In this document: positions 33,299 through 57,611 of the stretch, one piece after another
How the letters are laid out: the number at the start of each line of letters is the position of its first letter
Position numbering within the stretch: position 1 is the first letter of the stretch
Origin: Acidimicrobiia bacterium
GTDB taxonomy: Bacteria > Actinomycetota > Acidimicrobiia > Spongiisociales > UBA5794
Reading direction: 5' to 3'
DNA length: 64,000 bases
NCBI GenBank assembly: GCA_965216945.1
Contig: CBDCGU010000003.1
Location: forward strand, 3,868 to 67,867
The notes under the pieces: model-generated
The model's database searches: none
Told to the model about the DNA's origin: nothing
What the model saw: the letters and a program-made list of their open reading frames with translations, nothing else
Position numbers and translations under genes: made by a program

Positions 33299-34162
33299 TC
33301 AGAGCTCGGCCAGATACTCCTGACGCCACCGCTCCGTGCTCTCGACCTGGTTGAACGTGTAGACGTGGACGCCGGCAATGTTCGCCACCGGATCGACGAG
33401 CGTGCCGGCCATGTCCTCGAGCAGCTCGTCGGGGCTGTAGCCGCCCGGCTCGACGAAGGAGCGCAGCAGCCCGCGGTGACGGCTCAGGAACCGCATTGAG
33501 CGTCCGACGCCGATCCGAGCGGAGATCCGCATGAGCTTGAGACGGTCGGCAACTCCCGGAACGCCGATCACCGCCGGCAGGCGGATGCCGCTGGTGCGCA
33601 TGTCACGCAGCCACGTAGTGATCGCCTCCGCGTCGAAACACATCTGGGTCGTCATCGACGTGGCGAAGGGTTGTTTGTCGTGTAGCGCCAGCCGGGCCGT
33701 TTCGTCGTCGAAGATGTGGTGCCCCTCCGGGTAGGACCCGATGCCGATCTCATCGAACTCTGCGCCGAGCTCGGCGATTGCCCGCAGCAGCGAGCCGGCG
33801 TCGAAGAACTCGCCGGCCTCTGCGGCGTCCCCGCCGATGACGAAGATACGCCGGATCTCGAGGTCGTCGATCCGGGCGAGGAGCTTCTCCAGATGCGTCC
33901 GATCGTGGATCATCCGTGCCGACAGGTGCGGGATCACGTCGAAGCCACGGCGCCGCAGCACGGCGGCGAGCTCGATCGTGTCTTCTAGTGGCTTCACCGG
34001 TGACGCCGTCACGGAGACCGCTGCGGCCGGGGGCAGATACGCCACCTGATCGAGCACGTTCTTCAGCGGTATCACCTCGAAGATCGCGTTCTCCAGCACG
34101 CGGCGGATCGCCGCCCGCTGCGCTTCGTTGAGTTCACGTTCCATGGGCGGGGGGCTCCTCAT
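33299..34162 (-). CDS. Methylenetetrahydrofolate reductase-like protein (second MetF paralog, short form)
   Basis: 287 aa MetF-family protein (EVIPLKN...ISARMIHDRTHLEKLLARIDDLEIRRIFVIGGDAAE...). Start abuts the mttB-family stop, making it the last gene of the corrinoid methyltransferase operon. Confidence 0.7.
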   Translation of the reverse strand: MRSPPPMERELNEAQRAAIRRVLENAIFEVIPLKNVLDQVAYLPPAAAVSVTASPVKPLEDTIELAAVLRRRGFDVIPHLSARMIHDRTHLEKLLARIDDLEIRRIFVIGGDAAEAGEFFDAGSLLRAIAELGAEFDEIGIGSYPEGHHIFDDETARLALHDKQPFATSMTTQMCFDAEAITTWLRDMRTSGIRLPAVIGVPGVADRLKLMRISARIGVGRSMRFLSRHRGLLRSFVEPGGYSPDELLEDMAGTLVDPVANIAGVHVYTFNQVESTERWRQEYLAEL

Positions 34163-35697
34163 GTGTCAGAGTCGGGGAACGAGCTCTTGCGACGGTCGAT
34201 CCAATCGACGAGCTCGGCGTCGATCGCCTCATCGAGCGCCGGCGGCTCGTAGTCGGCGAGCATCTGCTTCCACTTGGCGTTGGCGCGCTGGACGGCGTCC
34301 CGACTCCCTTCGAGCTCCCATTGCTCGAAGCTGTTGTTGTCGGCGAGATCGGACCGCCAGAAGGCGGTTTCGAAGTTGGCCAGCGTGTGCTCGGTTCCGA
34401 GGAAGTGCTGCCCGGGCCCCGTCGCGATCATCGCATCGAGGGCAAGGGCGTTGTCGTCCACGGCGACGCCCGCAACCCACCGCTCCATCATCGTCGCTTG
34501 GATGGAGTCGATGATGAACTTCTCGTAGCCGACGGTGAGGCCGCCTTCGAGCCATCCAGCGGAGTGGAGCACGAAGTTCACCCCGGCCTGGACGGTGGGG
34601 AGAAAGGTGAGGGCGCTCTCGTAGGCGGCTTGGGCGTCGGCAACCTTCGACGCAGTGAAGTTCCCGCCGGAGCGGAACGGCACACCCAGCCGTCGCGCCA
34701 GCTGGGCCACGAGATAGAGCATCAGCGCAGGCTCAGGGGTGCCGAAGGTCGGGGCGCCCGATTGCATCGACATGGAGCTGGCGAAAGATCCGAAGATCAC
34801 AGGCGCTCCAGGACGGACGATCTGCGTGAACGCCATGCCTGCCATGGCCTCGGCGAGAGTCTGGGTCGCTGCCCCCGCCACGGTCGACGGCGCCATCGCC
34901 CCCGCCAGGATGAACGGAGTCACCAGCACGGCCTGATTGTTCTCGGCATACACCTTGGCAGAGCCGAGCATGGCGTGGTCCCAGGACATCGGGGAGTTGG
35001 CGTTCGCAAGGGCCAGCACGAACGTTCGCTCCTGCAACGCGTCGTCGCCGAACAGCACCTTGACGATGTCGATCGTGTCCTGGGCACGGTCGGGGTGTGT
35101 CACCGACCCCATGAAGGGTTTGTCGCTGTACTTGATGTGGGTGTACACCATGTCGAGATGACGCTTGTTGACCGGCAGGTCGACCGGCTCACAGAGAGTG
35201 CCGCCCGCATGATGGAGCGCAGGCGACATATACGTCAGCTTGGCGAGGTTGCGGAAGTCCTCGATGGTGGCGTAGCGGCGGCCGCCTTCCAGATCGCGCA
35301 CGAAAGGGGGCCCGTAGACGGGTGCGAACACCAGATGCGGGTCGCCGATGACGACTGAGCGCTCGGGGTTGCGTGCGTGCTGGGTGAACTTCTTCGGCGC
35401 TGTGGCTTGGATGAGCTGCCGGCACATCCCGCGGGGAAAGCGCACACGAGTCCCGTCGACATCGGCCCCGGCCGCGGCGAAGATCCGCACCGCCTCCTCG
35501 TAGCCGACGATGTCGATTCCCACCTGCTCCAGCAGGGTCTCGGCGTTCTCCTCGATGAGGCCGAGAGCTTCGGCCGACAGCACTTCGACCGGAGCCAGGT
35601 TGCGGGTGAGGAACTTCTGCTGCTCGATGGCCTTCGACACCCGCGCCGCCTGGCGTGCCGAGCGACCCCCGCCGCGCCGTCCCCGTCGTTCGCTCAT
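34159..35697 (-). CDS. MttB-superfamily (non-pyrrolysine) quaternary-amine:corrinoid methyltransferase, glycine-betaine (MtgB) type
   Basis: 512 aa trimethylamine methyltransferase (MttB) family over the full length with no in-frame amber codon. The genomic context (corrinoid protein, RACo, MtrH-like, DMGDH) points to a glycine betaine/quaternary amine substrate. Start ATG overlaps the RACo stop (ATGA). Confidence 0.8.
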   Translation of the reverse strand: MSERRGRRGGGRSARQAARVSKAIEQQKFLTRNLAPVEVLSAEALGLIEENAETLLEQVGIDIVGYEEAVRIFAAAGADVDGTRVRFPRGMCRQLIQATAPKKFTQHARNPERSVVIGDPHLVFAPVYGPPFVRDLEGGRRYATIEDFRNLAKLTYMSPALHHAGGTLCEPVDLPVNKRHLDMVYTHIKYSDKPFMGSVTHPDRAQDTIDIVKVLFGDDALQERTFVLALANANSPMSWDHAMLGSAKVYAENNQAVLVTPFILAGAMAPSTVAGAATQTLAEAMAGMAFTQIVRPGAPVIFGSFASSMSMQSGAPTFGTPEPALMLYLVAQLARRLGVPFRSGGNFTASKVADAQAAYESALTFLPTVQAGVNFVLHSAGWLEGGLTVGYEKFIIDSIQATMMERWVAGVAVDDNALALDAMIATGPGQHFLGTEHTLANFETAFWRSDLADNNSFEQWELEGSRDAVQRANAKWKQMLADYEPPALDEAIDAELVDWIDRRKSSFPDSDT

Positions 35698-37706
35698 CGC
35701 TCCTCCTTCTCGATGCGCCGGCGGCGCCGGCGTCCCGTGACGCCGACCGCCTCTTGACGTGCGGAGGCCGGCAGCGTCACGAGTGTCGAGAGATGGGGTG
35801 CCGGCTCGGTGCCGTGTGGGAATGCCATCGCCGCCACGAAGAGATCCTGGAAGCGAGGCTCGGTCGCCGTCTCCACCTTCTCGACATCGGCGGCGACCGC
35901 GGCCATCTCGCTCCGTTCGGTGCCGGAGAGGAGGGCGCGCACCGCACCGAGGCCGGAGGCGTTGCCCGCAGACCGCGCCTGGGAGAGTGGGATGTCCGGA
36001 ATCAGGCCGAGCACCATCGCGTAGAGCGGGTCGATGTGAGAACCGAATGCTCCGGCGAGTCGGATCGTGTCGACGGTCGTGTGCCCGGAACGCTCCCGCA
36101 ACAGGTCGATGCCTGCTCGCAGCGCCGCCTTCGCCAGCTGGATGGCTCGCACGTCGTTTTGCGTGATGCGCAGCTCCGGTTGCCCGCGATGCAGGACGTA
36201 GGCATGGGTGCGGCCGTCGGCGACGATGCGGTCGCTGCGGGCCGTGAGCGCGCCGTTCATCTTCCCCTGGGGATCGATGATGCCGGCGAGGAACATCTCA
36301 CCGATCACCTCGATGATGCCCGAGCCGCACACACCGGCGATGGCGACGCCGGCGCTGCTGTCGCTCCACCCCGGATCGTCGGACCAACCGTCGACGCCGA
36401 TGACAGCAAACCGGGGCTCCAAAGTCGCCGGATCGATTCGCACCCGCTCGATGGCTCCGACGGTTGCCCGCACCCCACAGCTGATCTCGCCACCCTCGAG
36501 GGCCGGACCCGTGGGGCTCGATGCTGCATAGAGACCCGCACTACTGCCGAGGACGATCTCTGCATTGGTGCCCACGTCGACGAGCAGCTGCACGTCATCG
36601 GCGCGATGGGGCCCTTCGGCGAGGATCGCCCCTGCCGTATCGGCACCGACGTGGCCGGCGATGCAGGGACCGAACGTCGCACGAGCGCTCGGAGCGGCGA
36701 TGCCAACCGCGGCGGCAGTCGTCACCACCGGCTCGCTGGTTGCCAGCGTGAAGGGTGCCGTGCCGAGCGGCGTCGGGTCGAACCCGAGGTAGAGGTGGTG
36801 CATGATCGGATTGCCCACGAGGAACACCTCGAGCAGGCGATCGGCGTCGACATCGGCCTGCACGAGCAACTCTGCCACGAGATCCGCCACGGCGTCACGC
36901 ACGGCGGCCGTCAACTCGGTTCGGCCGTCACCGTGCATCATGACGTACGAGACGCGGCTCATGAGGTCTTCACCGAACCGGATCTGTGGATTCATGATGC
37001 CGGCCGTCGCCAGTAGCTCACCGGTTCCGAGGTCGCACAGATAGGCGGCGATCGTCGTCGATCCGATGTCAACTGCAACGCCGACGATGTGGTCGACGAA
37101 CCCCGGCCACACGGCGACGACTTCACCGTCCCGCACCGCAGCCGTAACCTCGAGCTCCCCGCCGGCCAGCACGTCGCGGAGACGGGCCAGCGTCCCGTGC
37201 TCCACGCTCAGATCCTGCAGGTTCCACTGCTCTTCGAGGGCGTTGAGCAGTGCCGTATGGTCGCTGACTGCATCGCCCAGGCTCCGTAGCGCCACCTCCA
37301 CGTAGCGCAGGTCGACCAGGGGATCCAGCACCAGACCGGCGAGGTCGACGTCCTTCCGCACGACTTGTTTGTGGACCTGGCTCTCCGGGGGGATGTCGAT
37401 GATGATGTCGCCGAGCACCACGGCTCCACAACCAAGTCGATGTCCAGGCGGCATACCCCGTTTGGCATCGTATTTGCGCTCGTTGTCCGACCAATCGCCG
37501 AGGGCCCCGGCCGCCGAGCTGATCTCCCATTTGGGAAACTCCCCGAAGGAGGGCACGACACGGCATCGCCCGCAGATGCCACGCCCTCCGCACACCGAAT
37601 CGAGGTCGGCGCCGGCCACCCGGGCCGCGTCGAGGACCGAGATGCCGGCGGGCACGACGGCCTCGAGACCGGATGGCGTGAAAACGATGCGGGGTGTGCG
37701 TGTCAA
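35694..37706 (-). CDS. Reductive activator of corrinoid enzymes (RACo/RamA-like): [2Fe-2S] ferredoxin domain + ASKHA ATPase
   Basis: N-terminal plant-type ferredoxin CGGRGICGRC. Long ASKHA-fold region (DIGSTTIAAYLCDLGTGELLATAG...). Start is uncertain: the long ORF begins inside the upstream gene. The first start after the upstream stop is TTG 37706; GTG 37808 is the alternative. Confidence 0.65.
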   Translation of the reverse strand: MTRTPRIVFTPSGLEAVVPAGISVLDAARVAGADLDSVCGGRGICGRCRVVPSFGEFPKWEISSAAGALGDWSDNERKYDAKRGMPPGHRLGCGAVVLGDIIIDIPPESQVHKQVVRKDVDLAGLVLDPLVDLRYVEVALRSLGDAVSDHTALLNALEEQWNLQDLSVEHGTLARLRDVLAGGELEVTAAVRDGEVVAVWPGFVDHIVGVAVDIGSTTIAAYLCDLGTGELLATAGIMNPQIRFGEDLMSRVSYVMMHGDGRTELTAAVRDAVADLVAELLVQADVDADRLLEVFLVGNPIMHHLYLGFDPTPLGTAPFTLATSEPVVTTAAAVGIAAPSARATFGPCIAGHVGADTAGAILAEGPHRADDVQLLVDVGTNAEIVLGSSAGLYAASSPTGPALEGGEISCGVRATVGAIERVRIDPATLEPRFAVIGVDGWSDDPGWSDSSAGVAIAGVCGSGIIEVIGEMFLAGIIDPQGKMNGALTARSDRIVADGRTHAYVLHRGQPELRITQNDVRAIQLAKAALRAGIDLLRERSGHTTVDTIRLAGAFGSHIDPLYAMVLGLIPDIPLSQARSAGNASGLGAVRALLSGTERSEMAAVAADVEKVETATEPRFQDLFVAAMAFPHGTEPAPHLSTLVTLPASARQEAVGVTGRRRRRRIEKEER

Positions 37707-37716
37707 CGGTCGACGA

Positions 37717-38619
37717 TCAGCCGGCGGCGCGACGTCTGTTGCTGCGACGCCGGCCGCGCTCCTCGCCGCTTGCGGGCGGCGTGCGGTAGTGCCTGATCCA
37801 CGCGGCACAGTCGTTGTCGACGCCGCGCAGGACGTCTGCGGCCCGGATCGACTGCATGATCTCCGGCTCCAGCGGGTTTGTGATGGCCGACGTGAGCCCG
37901 GCGCCGATCGCCATGGCCAGGAAGGCTGCGTTGATGCCGGCACGGTTCGGCAGACCGAAGCTGACGTTCGACGCTCCGCATGTGGAGTTGACCTGCAGCT
38001 CGTCGCGCAGCCGTCCCACGAGATGCAGGACCTGCCGCCCTGCAGTCGCCATGGCGCCGATCGGCATGACGAGCGGGTCGACCACGATGTCCTCGCGACC
38101 GATGCCGTAGTCGTGCGCCCGGTCGACGATCTTCTCCGCAACCGAAAAACGGACATCGGGGTCTTCGGAGATGCCCGTCTCGTCATTGGTGATCGCCACC
38201 ACCGCGGCGCCGTGCCTGGCGACGAGCGGCAGAACCCGTTCGAGTGACTCGTCCTCGCCCGTCACCGAATTGACGAGCGCCTTGCCTTGGTACACGGCGA
38301 GCCCCGACTCCAGCGCCTCGATGATGGAGGAGTCGATGGAGAGTGGCACATCGGTCAGCGACTGGACGAGTTGCACGGCGTCGGCGAGGATCGTCGGCTC
38401 GTCGGCCAGCGGGATCCCGGCGTTGACATCGAGCATGTGCGCCCCGGCGGCCACCTGGGCCAGGGCATCCCTCTCCACACGGCTGTAGTCGCCGTTGCGC
38501 ATCTCCTCGGCGAGCAGCTTCCGGCCCGTCGGGTTGATACGCTCGCCGATGACGACGAAGGGCCGCTCGAAACCGAGCAATACCTCCTTCGTCGCCGAGC
38601 CGATGACGGTGTCGGTCAT
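37717..38619 (-). CDS. Pterin-binding methyltransferase (MtrH/AcsE-like methylcorrinoid:tetrahydrofolate methyltransferase)
   Basis: ATG 38619 (MTDTVIGSATKEVLLGFERPFVVIGERINPTG...). DHPS-like pterin-binding barrel: MLDVNAGIP, LSIDSS, GKALVNSVTGE, NSTCGASNVSFGLPNR. Confidence 0.7.
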   Translation of the reverse strand: MTDTVIGSATKEVLLGFERPFVVIGERINPTGRKLLAEEMRNGDYSRVERDALAQVAAGAHMLDVNAGIPLADEPTILADAVQLVQSLTDVPLSIDSSIIEALESGLAVYQGKALVNSVTGEDESLERVLPLVARHGAAVVAITNDETGISEDPDVRFSVAEKIVDRAHDYGIGREDIVVDPLVMPIGAMATAGRQVLHLVGRLRDELQVNSTCGASNVSFGLPNRAGINAAFLAMAIGAGLTSAITNPLEPEIMQSIRAADVLRGVDNDCAAWIRHYRTPPASGEERGRRRSNRRRAAG

Positions 38620-38969
38620 GATGTCGCTCCCTCGGATCTGTCGATACCGCCTGCGGCCACGAGTCGGCGCAGCACATCCTTCGTGAAGGCCGACTCCAGC
38701 GCCTCTACCGCCGCATCGACCTCGGCCTGCAGATCCTCGCTGCACGGCCGAGAGACACGGCGCCACTCGGCGAGATACTCATTCGTGGTCTTCTTGTCCG
38801 CGTTGACAGCCGCCTGATCAACCGCGATCTGGAAGCGGGAGTGGAGCTGCACGCTGGCTTTGCGACGGCCGGCTCGGGCCGTGACCTGGGCTGGGATGTC
38901 ACGCCAGTAGATGGTGATGAGCTCGGGCCTTGCGGCAGCGTTTCTGCCGTTGTCACGATTACCCCGCAT
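38616..38969 (-). CDS. Conserved hypothetical protein within the methyltransferase operon
   Basis: 117 aa ORF. Its start overlaps the DUF1638 stop and its stop overlaps the MtrH-like start, indicating translational coupling. No recognisable domain. Confidence 0.4.
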   Translation of the reverse strand: MRGNRDNGRNAAARPELITIYWRDIPAQVTARAGRRKASVQLHSRFQIAVDQAAVNADKKTTNEYLAEWRRVSRPCSEDLQAEVDAAVEALESAFTKDVLRRLVAAGGIDRSEGATS

Positions 38970-39606
38970 GCTTCACCTCCGGGCGGACCTCGATCGGGCG
39001 CCCGCGTCGCTCACCGAATCGCACGAGCGTGGTTTCCAAATCGCCGTAGCCGACCCGGCGATGCTCGAAGCGCAATCCGAGCCGATCGGCGGCAGCCCTC
39101 GCCTTCGCCACGAGCGCCTCCGTGGGTCGTTGCGAGAGGTAGACGAGGCGGGTGTAGTTGCCGAAATACGCATCGAGGAGGTGGGGGTGGCGGTCGAGAC
39201 CGAGCCCGGCCCACATGATGCGATCGAAGTGCTTGGTGAGGTAGTCGGTCAGGTAGAACGTGCCGATCTCCTCATCGGCGAGCGCGGCGAACACCGGCGA
39301 GGTGGCGTAGAACTCGTAACAGTGATCTCCGGGCAGACGGGTGGCGCCGTAGCGGGCGACGATCGGGTCGAGCAGACCGCCGGTGCCGCAGTCGGCATAG
39401 CCGACGAGGACCCGTTCGTACACATCGCCGGCTGCCGCCAGCCTCGCCTCGACGGCGCCGGGGATCCGGTCGGGCCGGTTGTGCAGCGAGGCGGGCAGAC
39501 ACTCGAGCTCGACGTGTTTCCAGCCGCTCGCCCTGATGACGTCGGCCAGCTCGCGGGCGAGGGCGCCGCATGCCAGCACCAGGACCCGGGGTGGAGCGTC
39601 AGACAT
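38959..39606 (-). CDS. DUF1638-domain protein (accessory protein of corrinoid methyltransferase systems)
   Basis: 215 aa. N-terminus VLVLACGALARELADVIRASGW and GYADCGTGGLLD, typical of DUF1638, which co-occurs with MttB-family/corrinoid gene sets. Confidence 0.55.
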   Translation of the reverse strand: MSDAPPRVLVLACGALARELADVIRASGWKHVELECLPASLHNRPDRIPGAVEARLAAAGDVYERVLVGYADCGTGGLLDPIVARYGATRLPGDHCYEFYATSPVFAALADEEIGTFYLTDYLTKHFDRIMWAGLGLDRHPHLLDAYFGNYTRLVYLSQRPTEALVAKARAAADRLGLRFEHRRVGYGDLETTLVRFGERRGRPIEVRPEVKHAG

Positions 39607-40309
39607 CCTCGGACGCCAGCAGGCGGCGGCGGGTCACGAGCTCTTTGGCGGTTTCGGCTGCCACTGCGGCATCGCGGCAGTAGGCGTCGGCGCCGACGGC
39701 GTCGCCGAACTCCTCGTTGAGGGGCGCTCCACCGACCAGCACAAGGTAGTCGTCGCGGATGCCTCTCTCTTTCATCGCCTCGATCACGACTTTCATGTAG
39801 GGCATCGTGGTGGTGAGAAGCGCCGACATCCCCAAGATGTCGGGTTTGTGCTGCTCGAGCGCATCCAGGTACTCGTCGACGTCGGTGTTGATGCCGAGAT
39901 CGACGACGTCGAACCCGGCCCCTTCCAGCATCATCGCCACGAGGTTCTTGCCGATGTCGTGAATGTCGCCTTTGACGGTGCCGATCACGACCTTGCCGAC
40001 GTTGGCGGCGCCGGTCTCGGCGAGCAGCGGCCGGAGGATCTCCATTCCCGCCTTCATCGCATTTGCGGCCAGCAACACCTCCGGGACGAAGAGGATGCCG
40101 TCCCGGAAGTCGATGCCGACGATCCGCATGCCTTCGACCAGGGCCTCGTTGAGCACGTCGCCGGCGGTCCACTCCCGCGACAGGAGGATGTTCGTGCCCT
40201 CGACGATCTCCTCGGCGAGGCCGTCGTAGAGGTCGTCGTGCATCTGTTCGACGAGCTCTTCGTCCGACAGGCTGCTGAGGTCGAGTTCTTGGTCGTGTTC
40301 GTCAGTCAT
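39599..40309 (-). CDS. Cobalamin-binding corrinoid protein (MtgC/MtbC-like)
   Basis: ATG 40309 (MTDEHDQ...). B12-binding cap plus Rossmann domain with the DxHxxG motif (KGDIHDIGKNLV) and MSALLTTT. Confidence 0.8.
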   Translation of the reverse strand: MTDEHDQELDLSSLSDEELVEQMHDDLYDGLAEEIVEGTNILLSREWTAGDVLNEALVEGMRIVGIDFRDGILFVPEVLLAANAMKAGMEILRPLLAETGAANVGKVVIGTVKGDIHDIGKNLVAMMLEGAGFDVVDLGINTDVDEYLDALEQHKPDILGMSALLTTTMPYMKVVIEAMKERGIRDDYLVLVGGAPLNEEFGDAVGADAYCRDAAVAAETAKELVTRRRLLASEDV

Positions 40310-40398
40310 GGTGGTCTCGCGGGGCGGGCTGGTGGCAACCAACCGGTGCCGTCCCACGACCTGGTTTGGCTGTCCTTGATCCGGCCCGATGGTTCCAT

Positions 40399-40426
40399 GA
40401 TACGGAACGGTCCTACATGGTGGAAC
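40399..40426. promoter_or_regulatory. Conserved 28-nt cis-element GATACGGAACGGTCCTACATGGTGGAAC (copy 1) in the corrinoid-operon / dmgdh divergent region
   Basis: 24 of 28 positions are identical to 55267-55294 upstream of fhs. The element is built from overlapping imperfect palindromes of the type GTnCCAC-ATS-GTGGnAC. Confidence 0.5.
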
Positions 40427-40574
40427 ACTACAACACCGGCATCCCCCTCGCCACCCGTTCCGCTGCCGCCGGATCGACCCGGAGTCACATTGAACAGCCC
40501 TCTGGCGGGCCAGTAGCGTGGTTCTGGGAATGCGTCACCCGCCGCCGGCAGGTAGTGTTCCACCATGTAGCATC

Positions 40575-40591
40575 GTGCCACATCGTGGTAC
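40575..40591. promoter_or_regulatory. Palindromic site GTGCCAC-ATC-GTGGTAC immediately upstream of dmgdh
   Basis: 7-3-7 inverted repeat with one mismatch. Related to the sites at 55278-55294 and 57595-57611. Confidence 0.45.
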
Positions 40592-40630
40592 GCCGCGCCC
40601 AGCCACCACCCGCATGAAGGAGCAGACGTC

Positions 40631-43141
40631 GTGAGCGATCTACCCACGAAGGCAAAGGTCGTCGTCGTCGGCGCCGGCATCGTCGGGAACTCGGTCGTGA
40701 AGCATCTCGCCGAGCTCGGGTGGCGTGAGATCGTGCAGCTCGACAAAGGCCCACTCCCCAACCCCGGCGGCTCCACAGGACATGCGTCCAACTTCATCTT
40801 CCCGGTCGACCACAACAAGGAAATGGCCTACCTGACGCTGGACAGCCAGCAGCAGTACGAAGAGATGGGCGTCAACACGACGTGTGGTGGCATCGAAGTG
40901 GCCCGGACCGAGGCGCGCATGGAGGAGCTGAAGCGGCGTATGACGTCCGCCACCGCCTGGGGCATCGAGTCCAGGCTGCTCACCCCGCAGGAGGTGAAGG
41001 AGATGGTGCCGTTCATCGACGAGGGCATCATCCTCGGCGGATGGTACACACCGAGCGTCTCGGTCGTCGACTCCCTACGCGCCGGCACGATCATGCGAGA
41101 ACGTGCCATGGAGCTCGGGGCCCTCACCGTCTCCCCCAACACCGAGGTGACCGACGTCACCGTCGAGGACGGCGCCGTGACGGGAGTCACGACGGACAAG
41201 GGCCACATCGAATGCGAGTACGTCGTGATCGCCTGTGGTGTGTGGAGCCCGCGCATCGCGGCAATGGCGGGAGCGACCATCCCACTGACGCCCGCCGTTC
41301 ACCAGATGATCGACGTGGGGCCGCTCGAGCCGCTGCAGTCGACCAACAACGAGATCGGCTACCCGATCGTGCGCGACATGGACACGTTCTGCTACGAAAG
41401 ACAGACGGCGGGTTCCATGGAGGTCGGCTCGTACGCCCACCGACCGATCTTCCACCACCCCGACACGATCCCCTCGATCGAGGAGTCGCGGCTCTCCCCC
41501 ACCGAGCTGCCGCTGACGATGGACGACTTCGACCCCCAACTCGAACAGGCCCTGGAGCTGATGCCGTTCCTCGGCGACGCCGAGATCAAATACGGCATCA
41601 ACGGATTGCTCTCCCTGACACCGGATGCGATGCCCCTCGTCGGCGAGACGGTCGAGGTACGAAACCTCTGGTCGTGTGCCGCCATCTGGATCAAGGAGGG
41701 CCCGGGCACGGGCCGGGCGCTCGCCGAGTGGATGACCTATGGCTATCCGGAGATCGACCCGCACGCCTCGGACATCGCCCGTTTCTACACCTACCAGCGG
41801 AGCGAGCATCACATCCTCGAGCGCTGCGCCGAGCACTTCAACAAGACATACGGCATCGTTCACCCGCGCGAGCAGTGGGACTCGGAGCGGCTGAGCCGGA
41901 TCGCCCCGTTTCACGTGCGGACTCAAGCGCTGGGCGCCGTCTACTTCGAGGCCGGAGGGTGGGAGCGGCCCCACTGGTACGAGAGCAATACCCCGCTGCT
42001 GGAGAAGTACGCCGACCAGATCCCGGAGCGTCCCCACGAGTGGGATGCCCGATGGTGGTCGCCGATTCAGAACGCCGAGCACCTCGCCCTCCGCGAGAGC
42101 GTCGGAATGGTCGACGTGACAGCGTTCGCCATCTTCGACTTCACCGGACCTGGAGTGGTCGACTACATCGAGAAGATGGCGGTGAACAAGTGCGACCGAC
42201 CCGTCGGCGCGGCGATCTACACACCGCTGTTGAACGAGCAGGGAGGGTTCCGCTCCGACCTGACCATCATGCGCCTCGGCGACAGGCACTTCCGGGTCGT
42301 CACGGGTGGATTCGACGGAGGACGCGACAAGTACTGGTTCCGCAAGTGGCTGCCGCACGATGGGTCGGTGGTGATGGAGGACATGACATCCGCGATCTGC
42401 ACGGTCGGCGTGTGGGGCCCCAACGCCCGCAACCTCGTGAGCACGGTCACCCGCGACGACATCTCCAACGAAGGCTTCCGCTACGGCTCCGTCAAGCAGG
42501 TGACCATCGGGTCCATCCCATGCACGATGTTCAGGATCTCCTACGTCGGTGATCTGGGCTGGGAGATCTACACCAACATGGAGCACGGTCTGAAGCTGTG
42601 GGACCTCCTCTGGGAGGCCGGCCAGGAGTTCGGCGTGGTCCCGGTCGGAGCCGGGGTCTACGGGACGACGGGGCGGCTCGAGAAGGGATACCGGCTGATG
42701 GGAGCCGAGCTCGAGTCCGAGTACACGCCGATCGAGGCCGGTCTGGCCCGGCCCAAGGTGAAGGCCGCCGACTTCATCGGCAAGGCGGCCTATCTCGCCG
42801 CCCGCGAGGAAGAGCCCGCCGCCATCTGCTGCACGCTCACGATGGAGTCGCACGTCTCCGACTCCGGTATTGCCCGGTTCCCGATGGGCGGCAACGAACC
42901 GATCCTCACGCTCGACGGCCGGCGCATCGTCGATGGCAAGGGCCGAGTCTCGCGAGTCACCAGCGCCGGCGCCGGTCCCTCGGTCGGCAAATACCTGCTT
43001 CTCGGATACCTGCCGCCCGAGTACGCCGTCGTGGGCACCGAGTTGCAGATCATGTACCAGAACGAGTTGTTCCCGGTGAAGGTGGCCGTAGCCGGGAGCA
43101 CACCGCTGTTCGATCCCGACGACACGCGCATGAAGGCCTGA
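40631..43141 (+). CDS. Dimethylglycine/sarcosine dehydrogenase family (FAD oxidase domain + GcvT-like folate-binding domain)
   Basis: 836 aa. Dinucleotide fold VVVVGAGIVGNS. GGSTGHASN carries the conserved His for covalent FAD. C-terminal aminomethyltransferase-like domain. GTG start with a GAAGGAG RBS. Confidence 0.85.
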   Translation: MSDLPTKAKVVVVGAGIVGNSVVKHLAELGWREIVQLDKGPLPNPGGSTGHASNFIFPVDHNKEMAYLTLDSQQQYEEMGVNTTCGGIEVARTEARMEELKRRMTSATAWGIESRLLTPQEVKEMVPFIDEGIILGGWYTPSVSVVDSLRAGTIMRERAMELGALTVSPNTEVTDVTVEDGAVTGVTTDKGHIECEYVVIACGVWSPRIAAMAGATIPLTPAVHQMIDVGPLEPLQSTNNEIGYPIVRDMDTFCYERQTAGSMEVGSYAHRPIFHHPDTIPSIEESRLSPTELPLTMDDFDPQLEQALELMPFLGDAEIKYGINGLLSLTPDAMPLVGETVEVRNLWSCAAIWIKEGPGTGRALAEWMTYGYPEIDPHASDIARFYTYQRSEHHILERCAEHFNKTYGIVHPREQWDSERLSRIAPFHVRTQALGAVYFEAGGWERPHWYESNTPLLEKYADQIPERPHEWDARWWSPIQNAEHLALRESVGMVDVTAFAIFDFTGPGVVDYIEKMAVNKCDRPVGAAIYTPLLNEQGGFRSDLTIMRLGDRHFRVVTGGFDGGRDKYWFRKWLPHDGSVVMEDMTSAICTVGVWGPNARNLVSTVTRDDISNEGFRYGSVKQVTIGSIPCTMFRISYVGDLGWEIYTNMEHGLKLWDLLWEAGQEFGVVPVGAGVYGTTGRLEKGYRLMGAELESEYTPIEAGLARPKVKAADFIGKAAYLAAREEEPAAICCTLTMESHVSDSGIARFPMGGNEPILTLDGRRIVDGKGRVSRVTSAGAGPSVGKYLLLGYLPPEYAVVGTELQIMYQNELFPVKVAVAGSTPLFDPDDTRMKA

Positions 43142-43143
43142 CG

Positions 43144-43911
43144 ATGCGTGTGCTGGTGTGTGTCAAGCGTGTGCCGGCCCCAGGGGCCAAGATCGCCGTC
43201 ACCCCGGACGGGCGAGACGTCGACACCAATCTCCTCGGGTTCACCGTCAGCCCCCACGAGGAGTGTGCGGTGGAGGAAGCGGTCCGCATCGTCGAGAACC
43301 ATGGCGGCAGCGCCACCGTGCTCACGCTTGGGCCCCCCGAAGCCGAGGAGCAAATCCGCACGGCCTACTCGGTGGGTGCCACACACGGGGTGCTGATCGA
43401 AACGCCCGTCACCGACTGGGAGCCCATCGCCACGGCATCAGCCATCACGGCGACGGTTCAGGAGCTGGAGGCAAGGGACGGACCATTCGACCTGCTGCTG
43501 TTCGGCAACGAGTCGGCCGACTCGGGAGGATTCCAGGTCGGCATCCGCGTCGCAAGAGCGCTTGGTCGCCCCATCGTCTCAGGCATCAAGGGCATCGACA
43601 TCGGCGACGGCACGATCACAGCCCGACGGGAGACACCGCACGGCTCCGAGGTCTACGAGGTACCACTCCCGGCGGCGGTCGCCGTCAAAGAAGGAATCAA
43701 CCTGCCCCGCTACCCGACCCTCAAGACCCGCATGTCGGCCAAGAAGCTCCCGGTGGAGAAGACGGCCGCCGAGCCGGCACCGGGGCCGCAGTCAAAGGTC
43801 AGGTTCGAGGCGCCGCCTCAGGTGGCTTCGTCCGTGGAGATCCTCGGGAACGGGCCGGATGCGGCACGTGCCGTGGTCGACGTGCTGGAAGAGCTGGGGA
43901 TCGTCGGATGA
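43144..43911 (+). CDS. etfB: Electron transfer flavoprotein beta subunit
   Basis: MRVLVCVKRVP...LLLFGNESADSGGFQVG...LPRYPTLKTRMSAKKLPVE. Its stop overlaps the etfA start. Confidence 0.85.
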   Translation: MRVLVCVKRVPAPGAKIAVTPDGRDVDTNLLGFTVSPHEECAVEEAVRIVENHGGSATVLTLGPPEAEEQIRTAYSVGATHGVLIETPVTDWEPIATASAITATVQELEARDGPFDLLLFGNESADSGGFQVGIRVARALGRPIVSGIKGIDIGDGTITARRETPHGSEVYEVPLPAAVAVKEGINLPRYPTLKTRMSAKKLPVEKTAAEPAPGPQSKVRFEAPPQVASSVEILGNGPDAARAVVDVLEELGIVG

Positions 43912-44879
43912 CGTATCTCTATCTCCTCGAGCACGACCGTGGCGAGATGAACGATGCGACATTGGGTGGGCTGACCGCCGCCGTCGAGCTGGCTCGCGGC
44001 CACGGGACGGTGGTCGACGTCGCCGTCTTGGGAAGGAGTGGTGACGCGCTTGCGGCGGACCTCGCCGGCTCGGGAGCCGCCACGGTCCATCAGGTCCACC
44101 ACGAGCTGCTCGCCGACTACGGACCGGACGCTTGGGCAGAGGCCCTGAGCGCCCTGGGAGACGCAGTGGGAGCGACCGCCTATCTCGCCACGGGCACCGA
44201 TCGGGGCAACGAGGTGCTGGCCCACGTGGCGGCGATCGCCGGCACTGCGATGGTCGCCAACTGCCTCGATGTCCACGACACCGGCGAAGCGTGGGAAGTC
44301 AAGCGCCTGCGCTGGGGCGGGAGCCTGCACGAGATCACCCGGCTCGAAGCTCCGCTGAGGATTGCCACATTTGCCCCACACACCACCGAACCCAAGACCG
44401 TGTCGGGTGACGCTCCCACGATCACCACATTCACCCCGGATCTCAGCGAGCGCGCTGCGATCACTCTGGTGCGGGATCGGGTCGTGACCGCCGAGGGTGT
44501 CACCCTGGCCACCGCACCCGTGGTGGTCAGCGGCGGGCGCGGCGTCGGCAGCGCCGAAGGCTTCGCCGCTCTCGAGGAACTGGCGGATCTGGTGAATGGA
44601 GTCGTGGGTTGCAGCCGTGTCGTGACCAACAACGGGTGGCGGCCGCACTCCGATCAGGTCGGGCAGACCGGTACCGTGGTCGCCCCCGATCTGTACATCG
44701 CATGCGGCATCTCCGGCGCCGTCCAGCACTGGGTTGGCATGATGAACGCCAAACACGTCTTGGCCATCAACACGGATCCGGAAGCCCCGATGGTCACCAA
44801 GGCCGACTGGGCGGTGGTCGCCGACCTGCACGCAGTGCTCCCCGCCGTGGTCGAGGAGATCAAGCGCCGCAGGGGTTGA
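43908..44879 (+). CDS. etfA: Electron transfer flavoprotein alpha subunit
   Basis: C-terminal FAD-binding domain [15 protein letters not shown]...[20 protein letters not shown]. Confidence 0.85.
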
Positions 44880-44890: not shown

Positions 44891-44944
44891 CCCGTTCTTG
44901 CGTAGCTCATGGCGGCATTCCGCCGTGAGCTACGCAAGAACGGG
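44891..44944 (+). terminator. Large hairpin (19-bp perfect stem with a structured 16-nt loop) just after etfA; candidate intrinsic terminator without a U-tract
   Basis: CCCGTTCTTGCGTAGCTCA-[TGGCGGCATTCCGCCG]-TGAGCTACGCAAGAACGGG begins 12 nt after the etfA stop. Confidence 0.5.
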
Positions 44945-47362: not shown

Positions 47363-48391
47363 ATGAGCAGCGGCACACGACAGACAGCCTTCCAGACACT
47401 GCTCGCCACCGGCAACGTGCTGGTGGCGGATGGCGGGATGGGCACGTCGCTGTTCTCGCTCGGCCTCGCCAACGGCGAGTCTCCGGAGCTGCTCAACGTT
47501 GCCGAGCCCGACATCGTGGTGAAGGCCCACCGCGGGTTCGTCGAGGCCGGCGCCGACATCATCCTGACCAATACGTTCGGAGGGAACCGGCGCCGTCTGG
47601 CACTCCACCAGCTGCAGGACAAGGTGGCAGAGCTCAATGCCGCGGCGGTCGATGTGGCTCGTGAAGCTGCGGCCCTCGGTGACCGCCCGGTGGCCGTTGC
47701 CGGCAGCATTGGACCTACCGGCGATCTCATCGCGCCCCTCGGTGAGCTCTCGTGGGACGAAGCCGTCTCCGTCTTCTCCGAGCAGGCTCGATCCCTTGCT
47801 GGATCCGGAGTCGATGTGCTGTGGATCGAGACCATGTCCAGTGTCGAGGAGCTCTCGGCGGCTTTCGATGCGACCGATGGCATCGATCTGCCCGTGGTCA
47901 CCACGATGAGCTTCGACACGAACGGCAGCACGATGATGGGGGTCGCCCCGGCGCAACTCGCTCGCTGGTCGCGGGACGCCGCGCGCGGCCCGGCGGCGTT
48001 GGGCGCCAACTGCGGCATCGGGCCCGGCGACGTGCTGGCGGCGGTTCACGACATCGTGCAGACGGCACCCGGAAGCGTCGTCGTGGCCAAGGCCAATGCC
48101 GGGATTCCCGCCTACACCAAGACGGGTGGCCTCACGTACCCGACGGCAGCCGTGGACATGGTCGACTACGCCCGGCTGGCGATCGGTGTCGGTGCACGCA
48201 TCATCGGAGGTTGCTGCGGATCGACCCCCGACCATCTCTCATCGATCCGGGAGGTCGTGGACACGGTGGACATGGGAGAGGCGGCCGCCGATCTCACCGC
48301 GATCGAGGCTCGGTTCGGCACCAGCGGCCCGGTGGCGCAGGCGTCGCGGGAGCGGCGCAACCGGCGGCGGACGTCGCGCCGGTCGGCCTGA
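47363..48391 (+). CDS. Homocysteine S-methyltransferase family protein (betaine--homocysteine methyltransferase-like)
   Basis: Pfam S-methyl_trans-type fold: VLVADGGMGTSLF...DIILTNTFGGN...GANCGIGP...GGCCGSTPDHL (zinc/homocysteine-binding Cys triad). GGAGACGG RBS. Confidence 0.7.
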   Translation: MSSGTRQTAFQTLLATGNVLVADGGMGTSLFSLGLANGESPELLNVAEPDIVVKAHRGFVEAGADIILTNTFGGNRRRLALHQLQDKVAELNAAAVDVAREAAALGDRPVAVAGSIGPTGDLIAPLGELSWDEAVSVFSEQARSLAGSGVDVLWIETMSSVEELSAAFDATDGIDLPVVTTMSFDTNGSTMMGVAPAQLARWSRDAARGPAALGANCGIGPGDVLAAVHDIVQTAPGSVVVAKANAGIPAYTKTGGLTYPTAAVDMVDYARLAIGVGARIIGGCCGSTPDHLSSIREVVDTVDMGEAAADLTAIEARFGTSGPVAQASRERRNRRRTSRRSA

Positions 48392-48687: not shown

Positions 48688-49637
48688 TCATGCCGATCGG
48701 GCTCGTCGCAGCACGACGTCGATCGGAGTCGCCTCCATGTCGCCGAGCTCCTGGACGTACTCGTAGCCGAAGCGTCCCTTGATGCACAGGTGGCCGTTGG
48801 TCACCGAGTGATCGATCGGTGAGGTGACCTTGACGATCCGGTTGTCTTGCACGTGCAGGTCCAGATTGCACCCGACACCGCAGTAGGAGCACACGGTCCG
48901 GGTCACCGTCTGCTCCTCCTCGTTCCACATGTCCGCTTCACGCAGCTCGTACTCCGATCGGAACATCAATGCCCCGGTCGGGCACACCCCGATGCAGTTG
49001 CCACAGAACACACAGGCAGAATCGGTCAGGCCCGTGTCGAACTCTGTGGAGATACGGGCGTCGAACCCACGGCCGGCAACACCGAGCGCAAAGGTGTTCT
49101 GCGCCTCGGTCCCGCATGCCTGGACACACTTGTAACAGAGGATGCATTTGGAGTAGTCGCGCACATAGAGCTCGTTGTCGATCTTCACCGGCTGCGCGAC
49201 GGAGGCGGCCTGCTCGCCGTCTGGCGGAGCGTGATGACCGGGATGGCGGTGGTCGCGATCGTCCTGGGCGGGCTGTGCCGGGCCAAACCGATCAGGATCG
49301 GCTCCGTAGTCGTCGATCCACGCCTTGGTCGATGCATCGACGAGATCCATGTCGACGGAGGAGCCGAGCAGTTCGAAGACGAGCTTGCGGGAATGCCGCA
49401 CCCGCTCGCTGTCGGTGTGCACCACCATTCCCTCCTCGACGGGTCGGGAGCAGGACGGCACCAGCGCCCGTGAGCCCTCCACCTCGACCACACAGACCCG
49501 GCACACGTTGACCGGCGTCAGGTTGTCGAGGTAGCAGAGCGTGGGCTGCTCGCGGCCCATGCTCCGGCAGGCGTCGAGGATGGTCGAGCCCTCGGGCACG
49601 GCGGTCCCCGCCCCGTCGATGGTGACATGGACTTCCG

Positions 49638-49641
<4 letters not shown>
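48688..49641 (-). CDS. Formate dehydrogenase Fe-S subunit (NuoG/HylA-like): [2Fe-2S] ferredoxin + 2x[4Fe-4S] + Molybdop_Fe4S4 domain, lacking the molybdopterin catalytic domain
   Basis: ATG 49641 (MTEVHVTIDGAG...), overlapping the nuoEF-like stop (ATGA). 2Fe-2S region CYLDNLTPVNVCRVCVVEV. Ferredoxin CxxCxxCxxxCP motifs. C-terminal CSYCGVGCNLDLHVQDNRIVKVTSPIDHSVTNGHLCIKGRFGYEYV equals the N-terminal Fe4S4 domain of FdhF-type enzymes. Confidence 0.75.
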
Positions 49642-51410
<1,769 letters not shown>

Positions 51411-51424
51411 CAGCTTGAGGTCCA

Positions 51425-53317
51425 CTAGGCCACCGTTTCGATGCGCACTGCGGTGGCTTTGAACTCTGCGGTACCCGACTTCGGGTCCCACACGTCGATC
51501 GTGAGCTCGTTGACGTCGGCTTCGTCGGGGAAGTGGAAGGCCATGAACGCAAGCCCGGGGCGAAGCGACTCGTGGAACCATACGGGTACGTCGATGCTGC
51601 CTCGCCGCGATGTCACTCGGACGATGTCCCCTTCGGTCACGCCGAGGGTCGCTCCGTCCTCGGGTGCGACCTCGATGATGCCACCGTGGCGAATCGGCGA
51701 TCGGTAGCGGCCGGACTGAACGCCGGTGTTGTACGAGTCGAGCCGGCGGCCGGTCGTGAGGCGGATGGGGAAGTCGTCGCTCAGCTCATCGACCGGAGGC
51801 ACCCACTCGGTCGGTATGAACGGTGCGGGATCTCGTGGCATCGGATCTTCCCACAGCCACCCATGGAGGTACTGGGTTCCGGGATGACTCTCGTCGGGAC
51901 ATGGCCATTGCAGCCCGCCCAGCTCTTCGAGGCGGCGGTACGACATCCCGCCGTGCATCGGTGACAGGCTGCGACATTCGTCCCACACCTCCTCGGCCGT
52001 CGGGATGCCCCAGCCGACCCCGAGCCGTTCTGCGAGCAGGCTGATGATCTCGAGGTCGTCCTTGGCATCTCCCGGCGGGTCGAGTGCCTTGCGAACGCGC
52101 TGCACCCGTCGCTCGGACGACGTCACGGTTCCCTCGCTCTCCGCCCAGCCGGCGGCAGCAGGGAGGACCACGTCGGCCATCTCGGCGGTCTTGGTGAGGA
52201 ACATGTCCTGCACGATGATGAAGTCGAGGCCGTCGAGGATCTTGCGGATGTGCCCTACGTCGGCCTCCGACTGTGCCGGGTTCTCGCCGATGCAATACAG
52301 CGCGTTGATCTCGCCGCGCTCCATGGCTTCGAACATGAGCGAGATGTGGAGCCCGTTCCGCGGCGGGATGGGATGCCCCCAGAGAGCCTCGAACTTGCCG
52401 CGGATCTCGGCATCTTCGACGTTCTGGAACCCGGGGAGCTTGTTGGGGAGCGCCCCCATGTCCCCGCCGCCTTGCACGTTGTTCTGGCCGCGGATCGGAA
52501 CGAGCCCTGATCCGTAACGTCCGACGTGTCCTGTGAGCATCGCCAGGTTGATGAGCGCCAGGACGTTGTCGGTGGCGTTGTGATGCTCGGTGATCCCCAG
52601 CGTCCAGCAGATCTGTGCGGAGCCTGCGGTCGCGTAGGCATGGGCCATCTCCTTGATGGCCGCAGCCGGCACACCGGTGACCTGCTCGGCCCGGTGCAAC
52701 GTCCACTCGTCGACCGTCGTGCGATACGCCTCGTAGCCAGAGGTGGAGTGCGCGATGAACTCCTCGTTCTGCAGCCCGGCGTCGATGATCTCCCGACCGA
52801 CGGCATTGGCCAGGGCGATGTCCGACCCGACATCCAGCCCGAGCCACATCTCGGCCCAGGCCGACGAGGTCGTGCGCCGAGGATCGACCGCAAACAACCT
52901 CGCACCGTTACGCACACCCTTGAGAAGGTGGTGAAAGAAGATCGGGTGCGCTTCGCGCGCGTTGGATCCCCACAGCAAGATGACGTCTGTGGTCTCGATC
53001 TCCTCGTAGGAGGAGGTGCCTCCTCCTGCTCCCAGCACTGCCGCCAGACCGGCGACGGAGGGAGCGTGTCAGGTGCGGTTGCACGAGTCGATGTTGTTCG
53101 AGCCCATGGCAATCCGGGAGAACTTCTGTGCGAGGAAGTTCATCTCGTTCGTCGCCTTCGAGCACGAGAACATTCCGTAGGACTGGCCGTCGTGCCGCCG
53201 CAATCCCGTCGCTGCGGCATCGAGCGCCTCGTCCCACGACGCGGCCACCAGGTCACCCTTCCGCCGCACCAGCGGGGTGGTCAACCGTCCACGCTGCATT
53301 CCGTCACCTCCTTCCAC
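51425..53317 (-). CDS. fdhA: Formate dehydrogenase catalytic (molybdopterin) subunit, selenocysteine-containing (TGA at 53069-53071 read as Sec)
   Basis: ORFs 53069..53317 and 51425..53038 share one frame and are separated by a single TGA. The joined translation ...FSRIAMGSNNIDSCNRT-U-HAPSVAGLAAVLGAGGGTSSYEEIETTDVILLWGSNAREAHPIFFHH aligns with E. coli FdhF ...GTNNVDCCARV-U-HGPSVAGLHQSVGNGAMSNAINEIDNTDLVFVFGYNPADSHPIVANH. The downstream sequence is a full MopB formate-dehydrogenase domain (VRGQNNVQGGGDMGALPNKLPGFQ...). The N-terminal Fe4S4 domain is absent from this gene. Confidence 0.8.
53040..53056 (-). promoter_or_regulatory. SECIS-like hairpin downstream of the fdhA UGA (GUCGCC-GGUCU-GGCGGC)
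   Basis: mRNA UGA CACGCUCCCUCC GUCGCC GGUCU GGCGGC: a 6-bp stem begins 12 nt after the UGA. The apical loop GGUCU is identical to the GGUC(U) loop of the E. coli fdhF SECIS. Confidence 0.5.
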
Positions 53318-55266: not shown

Positions 55267-55294
55267 GATACGGGACGGTCCCGCATCGTGGTAC
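55267..55294. promoter_or_regulatory. Conserved 28-nt cis-element GATACGGGACGGTCCCGCATCGTGGTAC (copy 2) upstream of fhs, divergent from the MFS gene
   Basis: 24/28 identity with 40399-40426. Contains the palindromes CGGGAC-G-GTCCCG and GTCCCGC-ATC-GTGGTAC. Confidence 0.5.
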
Positions 55295-57594: not shown

Positions 57595-57611
57595 GTACCA
57601 CATCGTGGAAC
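57595..57611. promoter_or_regulatory. Near-perfect 7-3-7 palindrome GTACCAC-ATC-GTGGAAC at the iclR promoter/5' end
   Basis: Same consensus as the sites at 40575-40591 and 55278-55294. Located 23 nt upstream of the preferred iclR start, a candidate autoregulatory operator. Confidence 0.45.

Follow-up and report, generated by a model that had tools for sequence, protein, structure and literature searches.

Gene content and organization of the locus

The 64 kb stretch of DNA analysed here (the window; contig CBDCGU010000003.1 of assembly GCA_965216945.1) comes from an Acidimicrobiia bacterium and carries a seven-gene, minus-strand operon that faces a three-gene, plus-strand unit. Together, these genes resemble the cobalamin-dependent glycine betaine demethylation system (MtgBCD) of aerobic Proteobacteria. 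Families were called by Pfam and NCBIfam profile scans of the open reading frames (ORFs), and the observations reported concern gene content and order, domains, active-site residues, conservation and motif statistics.

The seven minus-strand genes were found in the order and at the positions given by an earlier annotation made from the nucleotide sequence (the original prediction). The first, mtgC (39599..40309), codes for a cobalamin-binding corrinoid protein of 236 aa (Pfam B12-binding_2 and B12-binding) when read from the ATG at 40309, and an upstream extension of the ORF reaches a GTG at 40357. It is followed by the gene for a DUF1638 protein (38959..39606; 215 aa, ATG at 39606; PF07796, 93 bits) and by a small gene (38616..38969; 117 aa, ATG at 38969) that had been left unnamed but specifies a member of PF13769 ('Virulence_fact', 68.6 bits). 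Next come mtgD (37717..38619; 300 aa, ATG at 38619; Pterin_bind, 102 bits), the counterpart of which is called MtgA in Desulfitobacterium hafniense, and the gene for a RACo-type activase (35694..37706; 670 aa, TTG at 37706; RACo_linker, Raco_middle and RACo_C_ter). The last two genes are mtgB-like, specifying a non-pyrrolysine methyltransferase of the MttB superfamily (34159..35697; 512 aa, ATG at 35697; PF06253, 734 bits), and metF2, specifying a short, divergent paralogue of methylenetetrahydrofolate reductase (MTHFR) (33299..34162; 287 aa, ATG at 34162; PF02219, 46 bits).

The likely start codons were set by direct reading of the junctions. The mtgC and DUF1638 genes overlap by 8 nt and the DUF1638 and PF13769 genes by 11 nt, while ATGA overlaps join the PF13769 gene to mtgD, the activase gene to mtgB and mtgB to metF2. 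Only between mtgD and the TTG start of the activase gene is there a gap, of 10 nt, and an identical gap is present in a relative (L001). Some overlap is therefore seen at five of the six junctions and the 4 nt ATGA type at three of them, so that the overlapping stop-starts are real but had been overstated as occurring at 'nearly all' junctions.

The predicted divergent unit was recovered by the domain scans at 40631..44879 on the plus strand. Its first gene (dmgdh, 40631..43141) codes for an 836 aa flavoenzyme of the dimethylglycine oxidase/dehydrogenase family that includes a folate-binding domain (DAO, FAO_M, GCV_T and GCV_T_C). The start of etfB (43144..43911; ETF domain), encoding 'MRVLVCVKRVP', lies 2 nt past the dmgdh stop codon, and etfA (43908..44879; ETF and ETF_alpha) overlaps etfB by ATGA. 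The best PDB match to the flavoenzyme is the N,N-dimethylglycine oxidase of Arthrobacter globiformis (1pj5), with 565 bits over the full length, compared to 283–293 bits for the mammalian dimethylglycine dehydrogenase (DMGDH). The window and Arthrobacter enzymes share a four-domain architecture, including the folate-binding domain, but in the window etfBA comes next, and this suggests that the enzyme passes electrons to electron transfer flavoprotein (ETF), as a dehydrogenase, rather than to O2. Directly after etfA is a perfect 25 bp hairpin (44891..44944, plus strand; minimum free energy −59.2 kcal/mol, z = −9.3, with none of 200 shuffles as stable), which, on the folding prediction, is likely to mark the end of the transcript.

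The operon and the divergent dmgdh-etfBA unit are present in identical order in a relative, GCA_035458525.1 (L001/L002), in which the MttB homologue is 87% identical and the same WhiB-TrpD pair lies downstream as in the window. The nearest homologues of the MttB, DUF1638 and PF13769 proteins are found in metagenome-assembled genomes of Acidimicrobiia, which together with the WhiB-TrpD synteny points to this class as the source. Other phyla also show the gene order of the operon, at dozens of loci. Given this recurrence, the arrangement is not a chance one. Recent horizontal transfer was also considered, but the G+C content is flat across the window (0.64–0.71) and so gives no compositional sign of it.

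A probable glycine betaine demethylation pathway

Methionine synthesis in Phaeobacter inhibens was shown by Price et al. (2018, PMC5764234) to require five proteins, of which one is a free-standing corrinoid protein, one binds pterin and one is a homocysteine (Hcy) methyltransferase, the other two being a RamA-like ferredoxin-DUF4445 protein and a member of DUF1638. In Ruegeria pomeroyi, mutants of mtgC (SPO2160) and mtgD fail to use glycine betaine and show methionine auxotrophy, and growth on betaine induces MtgB candidates of the MttB family (SPO2108/SPO2134), RamA, DUF1638 and MetF2 (Mausz et al. 2025, PNAS; PMC12478193). A P. inhibens double mutant of mtgB1 (PGA1_RS07270) and gbcAB shows no growth on betaine (preprint 10.64898/2025.12.19.695462), and actinobacteria account for about 5% of the marine mtgC reads (PMC12478193). 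Since the literature already describes this gene set, the island is classed as a known system: judged by its genes, it is an actinobacterial, operonic version of the aerobic MtgBCD system known since 2018/2025, and no new kind of system. Seven protein families are shared with Ruegeria and Phaeobacter: those of MtgB (MttB), MtgC (B12-binding), MtgD (Pterin_bind), the ferredoxin-containing RACo/RamA-like activase, the MetH-like Hcy module, DUF1638 and the MetF paralogue. Also shared are an aerobic-type heterotrophic host and the adjacency of dimethylglycine and C1-oxidation genes. The differences are that the genes are scattered there, whereas in the window all but the gene for MtgE form one translationally coupled operon, and that the window host is an Acidimicrobiia-like actinobacterium with a full MetH. 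The papers on the Ruegeria/Phaeobacter system do not mention the PF13769 protein, nor the IclR regulator and operator described below.

We consider it likely that the region is an Acidimicrobiia-type, aerobic, cobalamin-dependent glycine betaine demethylase module, consisting of MtgBCD and support genes. The chemistry, substrate and regulation set out here are read from homology and from the genetics of Ruegeria and Phaeobacter. MtgB would move one N-methyl group of glycine betaine to the Co(I) of MtgC, giving dimethylglycine and methyl-Co(III)-MtgC, and MtgD would hand the methyl group from MtgC to tetrahydrofolate (THF). The MetF paralogue would convert methyl-THF to methylene-THF, and Fhs and formate dehydrogenase, encoded 10 kb away, would complete the oxidation to CO2. 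MtgC that had become inactive, in the Co(II) form, would be re-reduced by the RACo-type activase using ATP, with DUF1638 and PF13769 assisting. The next methyl group would be taken by the dimethylglycine oxidase/dehydrogenase homologue, with EtfBA as the likely electron acceptor. An Hcy methyltransferase that is probably MtgE could transfer the methyl group of methyl-MtgC to form methionine, and one corrinoid protein would then serve both catabolism and methionine synthesis. The route foreseen in the original prediction, from a quaternary amine to THF and then to methylene-THF, is supported by the match to the published MtgBCD/RamA/DUF1638/MetF2 system and by the domain evidence.

The MtgC translation contains the DxHxxG ('GDIHDIG', the His-on motif), SxL and GG motifs. 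Its best NCBIfam match, 'glycine betaine-specific corrinoid protein MtgC', scores 210 bits against a cut-off of 370, and the protein falls under both NCBIfam MtgC cut-offs, which fits the published view that aerobic MtgC forms a distinct clade. MtgD matches PRK07535 with 352 bits (cut-off 259) and the MtrH model with only 21 bits, so that the earlier description as 'MtrH-like' does not hold; by its domain matches, it is a Pterin_bind/MeTr-type enzyme and a predicted methylcorrinoid:tetrahydrofolate methyltransferase. The best PDB match to the short MetF is 7xg9 (122 bits), the S6MTHFR of Sphingobium lignivorans SYK-6, founding enzyme of a 'type 4' MTHFR class that works downstream of demethylases and oxidises methyl-THF (Yu et al. 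2025, PMC11868366). S6MTHFR and the window protein are alike in size (about 288 aa), in having their genes beside those of methyl-THF-producing demethylases, and in the catalytic Glu, Asp and Gln, which are kept in the window protein. Of the seven type-4 motif residues, however, only P49 and F269 are retained, while L48, R78, F215, C219 and P268 are replaced by S, M, I, I and T. With five of seven motif residues different, the short MetF is not filed as type 4, and it is the gene context that suggests that it oxidises methyl-THF.

The chloromethane pathway of Methylobacterium extorquens CM4 (CmuA/CmuB/MetF2/FolD/PurU), to which PMC11868366 and PMC12478193 both refer, is also an aerobic, corrinoid-dependent demethylation in which methyl-THF goes to a dedicated MetF paralogue, but it acts on another substrate and its first methyltransferase is of another family, with no MttB. 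We know of no RACo/DUF1638/PF13769 block in that pathway. Mausz et al. place MtgC phylogenetically near the corrinoid domain of CmuA (PMC12478193). The D. hafniense MtgB/MtgC/MtgA system (PMC13080624; 2qne/9yce) shares with the window a non-pyrrolysine, TIM-barrel MttB-superfamily enzyme and a route, in the window predicted from the genes, in which three components pass the methyl group by way of a corrinoid protein to THF; the window differs in one residue of the MtgB active site (see below), in an MtgC that scores under the NCBIfam cut-offs, in its aerobic host and context, and in the additional DUF1638 and PF13769 proteins. The MttB/MttC/RamA system of Methanosarcina barkeri (7xcl) has in common the superfamily fold and the combination of a substrate methyltransferase, a corrinoid protein and an ATP-dependent activase. 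It differs in its UAG-encoded pyrrolysine (Pyl), in an acceptor that is coenzyme M and not THF, and in its RamA, where the window has a RACo-type activase with an N-terminal 2Fe-2S domain.

The MttB homologue matches PF06253 over the full profile (1–500 of 500), and its ORF has no internal stop codon. It scores 673 bits to PDB entry 4yyc, 411 bits to D. hafniense MtgB and 110 bits to M. barkeri MttB, and so, judged by score, does not group with the pyrrolysine-dependent trimethylamine enzymes. Pyl334 of M. barkeri MttB aligns with Phe347 of the window protein, consistent with the original assignment as a non-pyrrolysine enzyme. The 4yyc protein, which we take to be from Sinorhizobium, is an unpublished structure labelled 'putative trimethylamine methyltransferase'; it shares 61.6% identity with the window protein and is 83–85% identical to the products of cluster-linked rhizobial genes at three of the related loci (L032, L046 and L054). 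A match to the Rfam PYLIS_3 model inside the gene (34560-34659, minus strand; 38.9 bits, gathering score 38) was rejected as a pyrrolysine signal, since it begins at the Phe347 codon (34659-34657), the homologue of the Pyl codon, and the gene lacks UAG. It represents coding homology and no recoding signal, and the PYLIS_3 model thus also picks up coding homology in non-Pyl members of the family.

The betaine-binding residues of D. hafniense MtgB, four in number, are described as the likely minimum set (Picking et al. 2026, PMC13080624). In an alignment of 92 MttB-family sequences, the equivalents of Y97, R312 and H348 (MtgB numbering) are kept in the window protein and throughout its orthologous group (61–69% identity across phyla). 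A Tyr at the Y97 position, within a YRHWGG signature, is found in the window protein and 76 aligned sequences, whereas the MttB paralogues of 24–41% identity that lie beside mtgC in other loci do not have it. With three betaine-binding residues kept and a dimethylglycine-oxidase-like gene as neighbour, glycine betaine is the most likely substrate.

Several observations weigh against this reading. The experiments on this system have all been performed outside Actinomycetota. The equivalent of F356 is Gly in the window protein and in the whole orthologous group, and in D. hafniense MtgB an F356L change raises the Km several hundred-fold (PMC13080624). An invariant Trp is found at the I352 position, four residues before the F356 site (AGWLEGGL, compared to AGILQYFM in D. 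hafniense MtgB), so that, as far as an alignment can tell, the carboxylate clamp and one aromatic residue are kept while the second aromatic sits at a different position. The MetF paralogue is without five of the seven motif residues to which the oxidative direction of type-4 MTHFRs is attributed, and the genome also encodes a full MetH that includes a reactivation domain, which would make a methionine synthase role of the split system redundant. The demethylation set is present, but the island is not 'complete' in the full sense of the original prediction: neither FolD nor a sarcosine-demethylating enzyme was detected among the ORFs scanned, which left out about a dozen smaller ORFs of the window, and no assigned betaine transporter was found in the window. 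The Gly at the F356 site, together with the Trp elsewhere in the loop, would also suit an enzyme that demethylates a different methylated substrate bearing an acidic group, for example proline betaine, carnitine or gamma-butyrobetaine, with the dimethylglycine enzyme merely co-located. R312, and less so H348, are common to MtcB, MtpB, MthB and MtyB, the aromatic pair being MtgB-specific (PMC13080624), and genomes with mtgC often hold several MttB paralogues of specificities not established (PMC12478193), as illustrated by the 24–41% paralogues beside mtgC elsewhere. We nonetheless regard such a substrate as unlikely: Y97 is kept only in this orthologous group and lost in those paralogues, the identity to D. 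hafniense MtgB (411 bits) is high by the standards of the superfamily, and the 4yyc-like rhizobial orthologues occur in a cluster type that Mausz et al. tied to betaine use. Moreover, 9 of 50 loci have a dimethylglycine-oxidase-like gene no more than 10 kb away, and the one in the window has operator sites in common with the mtgC operon. A trimethylamine system, as implied by the database name 'trimethylamine--corrinoid protein Co-methyltransferase' and by the marginal PYLIS_3 match, is highly improbable in view of the Phe at the Pyl position, the absence of an in-frame UAG, the low score to M. barkeri MttB, the result with the NCBIfam trimeth_pyl model (284 bits, cut-off 525) and the presence of the carboxylate-binding Arg/His pair. 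In such genomes, 'trimethylamine methyltransferase' is probably a wrong annotation.

The remaining alternative, that MtgC, MtgD and MtgE with RACo and DUF1638 form a mainly anabolic, split methionine synthase carrying methyl groups from methyl-THF to homocysteine, as in P. inhibens, concerns the gene for an Hcy S-methyltransferase (mtgE-like; 47363..48391, plus strand; 342 aa; PF02574, 222 bits) that lies 2.5 kb past etfA in the window and directly after etfA in L001/L002. The label 'bhmt' in the original prediction, which is also the database label, agrees with its passing the NCBIfam BHMT model PRK07534 (376 bits, cut-off 338), but the protein is much nearer to the Hcy domain of Thermotoga maritima MetH (167 bits) than to human and rat BHMT (78 bits). 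According to Mausz et al., the rhizobial 'Bhmt' is the homocysteine module MtgE, which takes the methyl group from methyl-MtgC, and bacterial 'Bhmt' of this type are without the betaine-binding residues (PMC12478193). The window protein is, by these comparisons, probably MtgE, and 'BHMT' annotations in such genomes are probably wrong. This MetH-like module, and the proposal that MtgD is bidirectional (PMC12478193), favour the anabolic alternative. On the other hand, the genome already has a full, five-domain MetH (3838-7347, plus strand), preceded by a SAM riboswitch (3680-3768, plus strand; 75 bits) and followed by a canonical MetF (plus strand, ending at 8308); the operon holds an MttB homologue and a MetF paralogue rather than the Hcy module; and it is divergent from the dimethylglycine enzyme and has operators in common with fhs. 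A mainly anabolic role is, in our view, quite improbable, although the two roles, betaine demethylation and split methionine synthesis, are compatible and not mutually exclusive.

Seven gammaproteobacterial loci (L003, L025, L028, L029, L031, L039 and L079) carry a second MttB subfamily directly upstream of mtgC, the members of which are 38–41% identical to the window protein and have Ser or Gly at the Y97 position. Some of these loci also carry an orthologue of the window MttB (63–64% identity) nearby. In L003 at least, the metF2 slot is occupied by a gene for an MTHFR of canonical length, preceded by a DUF5981 (PF12225) gene, and this looks like a non-orthologous replacement.

PF13769, DUF1638 and the reactivation genes

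The activase is matched by the AcsV model over residues 7-632 with 336 bits, well under the cut-off of 800, and is therefore a relative of AcsV and not an equivalog; the RamA model gives 97 bits (cut-off 500). Its translation contains the N-terminal 2Fe-2S motif CGGRGICGRC, and the domain order is that of RACo, i.e., N-terminal 2Fe-2S ferredoxin, linker, middle and ASKHA C-terminal domains.

Homologues of the PF13769 protein are widespread, with 479 stand-alone members in a first search, 1315 cluster representatives at 50% identity, and at least 593 carriers in a scan of one genome per species. A literature search returned no mention of the PF13769 accession. Gene neighbourhoods were fetched for 80 loci, of which 50 had enough flanking sequence to be counted. 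Within these 50, PF13769 has as neighbours Pterin_bind in 45, MtgC in 44, and DUF1638 and RACo in 43 each, while all four are present in 38, in agreement with the original view of DUF1638 and the 117 aa ORF as conserved accessories. The corrinoid protein is thus kept in relatives, rather than replaced by an unrelated partner. A close MttB homologue (61–69% identity) and MetF2 are each found in 27 of the 50 loci, and a dmgdh homologue (≥50% identity, within 10 kb) in nine. Carriers of the module belong to Actinomycetota, Chloroflexota, Acidobacteriota and the Alpha-, Beta- and Gammaproteobacteria, and a short Myxococcota contig (L030) has MtgC, DUF1638 and PF13769.

Median identities to the window proteins are 79% for MtgC, 74% for MtgD, 66% for MttB, 55% for RACo, 54% for DUF1638 and 49% for PF13769. 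The conservation of the stand-alone MtgC is unusual (L007-L086), with values of up to 87% across Actinomycetota, Chloroflexota and Proteobacteria, and could stem either from the need to fit many protein partners or from transfer of the module between lineages. Among the longer PF13769 members are one DUF1638-PF13769 fusion (P0431) and two PF13769-Fer2-RACo fusions (P0422 and P0488), which may be artefacts, as they come from metagenomic gene calls.

DUF1638 has four invariant Cys residues (C13, C36, C73 and C96) in an alignment of 40 sequences, and its AlphaFold2 model (pLDDT 87.9) shows an alpha/beta fold; there was no sequence match in the PDB and no PDB fold match at E ≤ 0.001. The AlphaFold2 model of the PF13769 protein (pLDDT 84.6) likewise gave no significant PDB fold match. 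In P. inhibens, the DUF1638 and RamA-like mutants require methionine, and no role for DUF1638 was proposed (PMC5764234). By its gene neighbourhood, PF13769 is linked to the reactivation part of the module, while its chemistry is not revealed by these data. As a tentative reading, to which we give less than even odds as a whole, PF13769 and DUF1638 may be dedicated partners of RACo in a three-part reactivation unit that keeps MtgC loaded, and its cobalt as Co(I), in cells exposed to oxygen, DUF1638 possibly with a metal or Fe-S centre, and in Actinomycetota and Chloroflexota an IclR protein and its 17 bp operator may tie this unit to the genes for betaine, dimethylglycine and formate oxidation. 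The name 'virulence factor' would then be a database mislabel of PF13769.

Few osmolytes of soils and oceans are as abundant as glycine betaine. That aerobes can demethylate it by a B12-dependent route was not recognised until 2025, and then for Proteobacteria alone; the window and about 80 related loci indicate that Actinomycetota, Chloroflexota and Acidobacteriota have the module too, often with its genes in a single compact operon. The core of the module is highly conserved, with an MtgC about 79% identical across phyla, and PF13769 is nearly always encoded next to DUF1638. The window offers a clean, complete gene set for reconstitution, two candidate accessory factors (PF13769 and DUF1638) for an oxygen-sensitive Co(I) cofactor in aerobes, and a candidate regulator (IclR) with its operator. 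The new leads are modest ones: a so far overlooked partner protein of the PF13769 family, the four Cys residues of DUF1638, a changed position of one aromatic residue in MtgB of the aerobic clade, and an operator linked to IclR.

Proposed regulation and neighbouring one-carbon genes

The 320 bp intergenic region between the two divergent units contains a 40 nt inverted repeat, the arms of which are kept in L001 while the spacer has diverged. The core of the repeat is a 17 bp palindrome, and the corresponding pattern, GTNCCNNATCNNGGNAC, has four exact matches in the 64 kb, where 0.09 are expected; none of 100 shuffles reaches four. Two copies lie in the divergent region, at 40392..40408 on the mtgC side and at 40575..40591 on the dmgdh side, a third (55278..55294) is between fhs and the divergently oriented gene for an MFS transporter, and the fourth (57595..57611) is 23 bp upstream of the start codon of a gene for an IclR-family regulator (56823..57572, minus strand; HTH_IclR and IclR_C). 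The candidate IclR-bound sites are written GTTCCRYATCRYGGAAC. In 13 loci of Actinomycetota and Chloroflexota, IclR homologues of 42–49% identity are encoded divergently beside mtgC with the 17 bp site between, and on this basis we infer that the window protein is the regulator, its gene having been displaced by 17 kb. Its probable targets, by way of the palindrome, are the mtgC operon, dmgdh-etfBA, fhs and the iclR gene itself. A cobalamin or other riboswitch was considered for the 320 bp region and discounted, as there was no Rfam match even at E ≤ 1; the only riboswitch found by Rfam in the window is the SAM riboswitch before metH. A Sigma-70 promoter scan of the operon gave no match, which is uninformative for an actinobacterium of 67% G+C.

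The MFS transporter gene (55416-56795, plus strand), divergent from fhs, shares the operator region; as the sole transporter gene to do so with the island, it specifies a candidate importer or exporter.

The outlying genes named in the original prediction (metH-metF, Hcy methyltransferase, fhs and fdh) were all detected by the family scans. The genome holds both the classical (MetH) and the split (MtgC/D/E) routes to methionine, a combination that, according to Mausz et al., is uncommon outside a few groups (PMC12478193). Relative to L001, there is a 2.4 kb insert (44945-47362) between etfA and the Hcy methyltransferase gene. In it are the gene for an ECF sigma factor (45068-45613), a gene reaching to 46695 whose product is probably a membrane anti-sigma protein, its outer domain resembling SBP_bac_3, and, at 46326-47153, an unassigned ORF.

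The gene for formate-tetrahydrofolate ligase, fhs (53450..55210, minus strand; FTHFS, 829 bits), starts at the ATG at 55210 and encodes the N-terminus MSGVPSDLEIAQ. Beside it are the genes for an NAD-linked formate dehydrogenase (48688..53299, minus strand). The alpha subunit is split, with its parts out of order: the catalytic part is followed by a fusion resembling NuoE/NuoF, and the Fe-S N-terminal part (Fer2_4, 4Fe-4S and Molybdop_Fe4S4), encoded separately, comes last and ends exactly where the alignment of the catalytic ORF starts. The catalytic part begins at the ATG at 53299, with a strong Shine-Dalgarno sequence, and has an in-frame TGA (53071-53069) in a context typical for selenocysteine (NRT-U-HAPSVAGL), followed by a predicted hairpin. 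No tRNA-Sec was found in the window. An ORF at about 58537-59775 (plus strand) matches the NCBIfam model 'type III sulfide quinone reductase, selenoprotein subtype' with 637 bits (cut-off 525) and is followed by the gene for a DUF1641 protein; it hints, as a second sign, at the use of selenocysteine by this organism.

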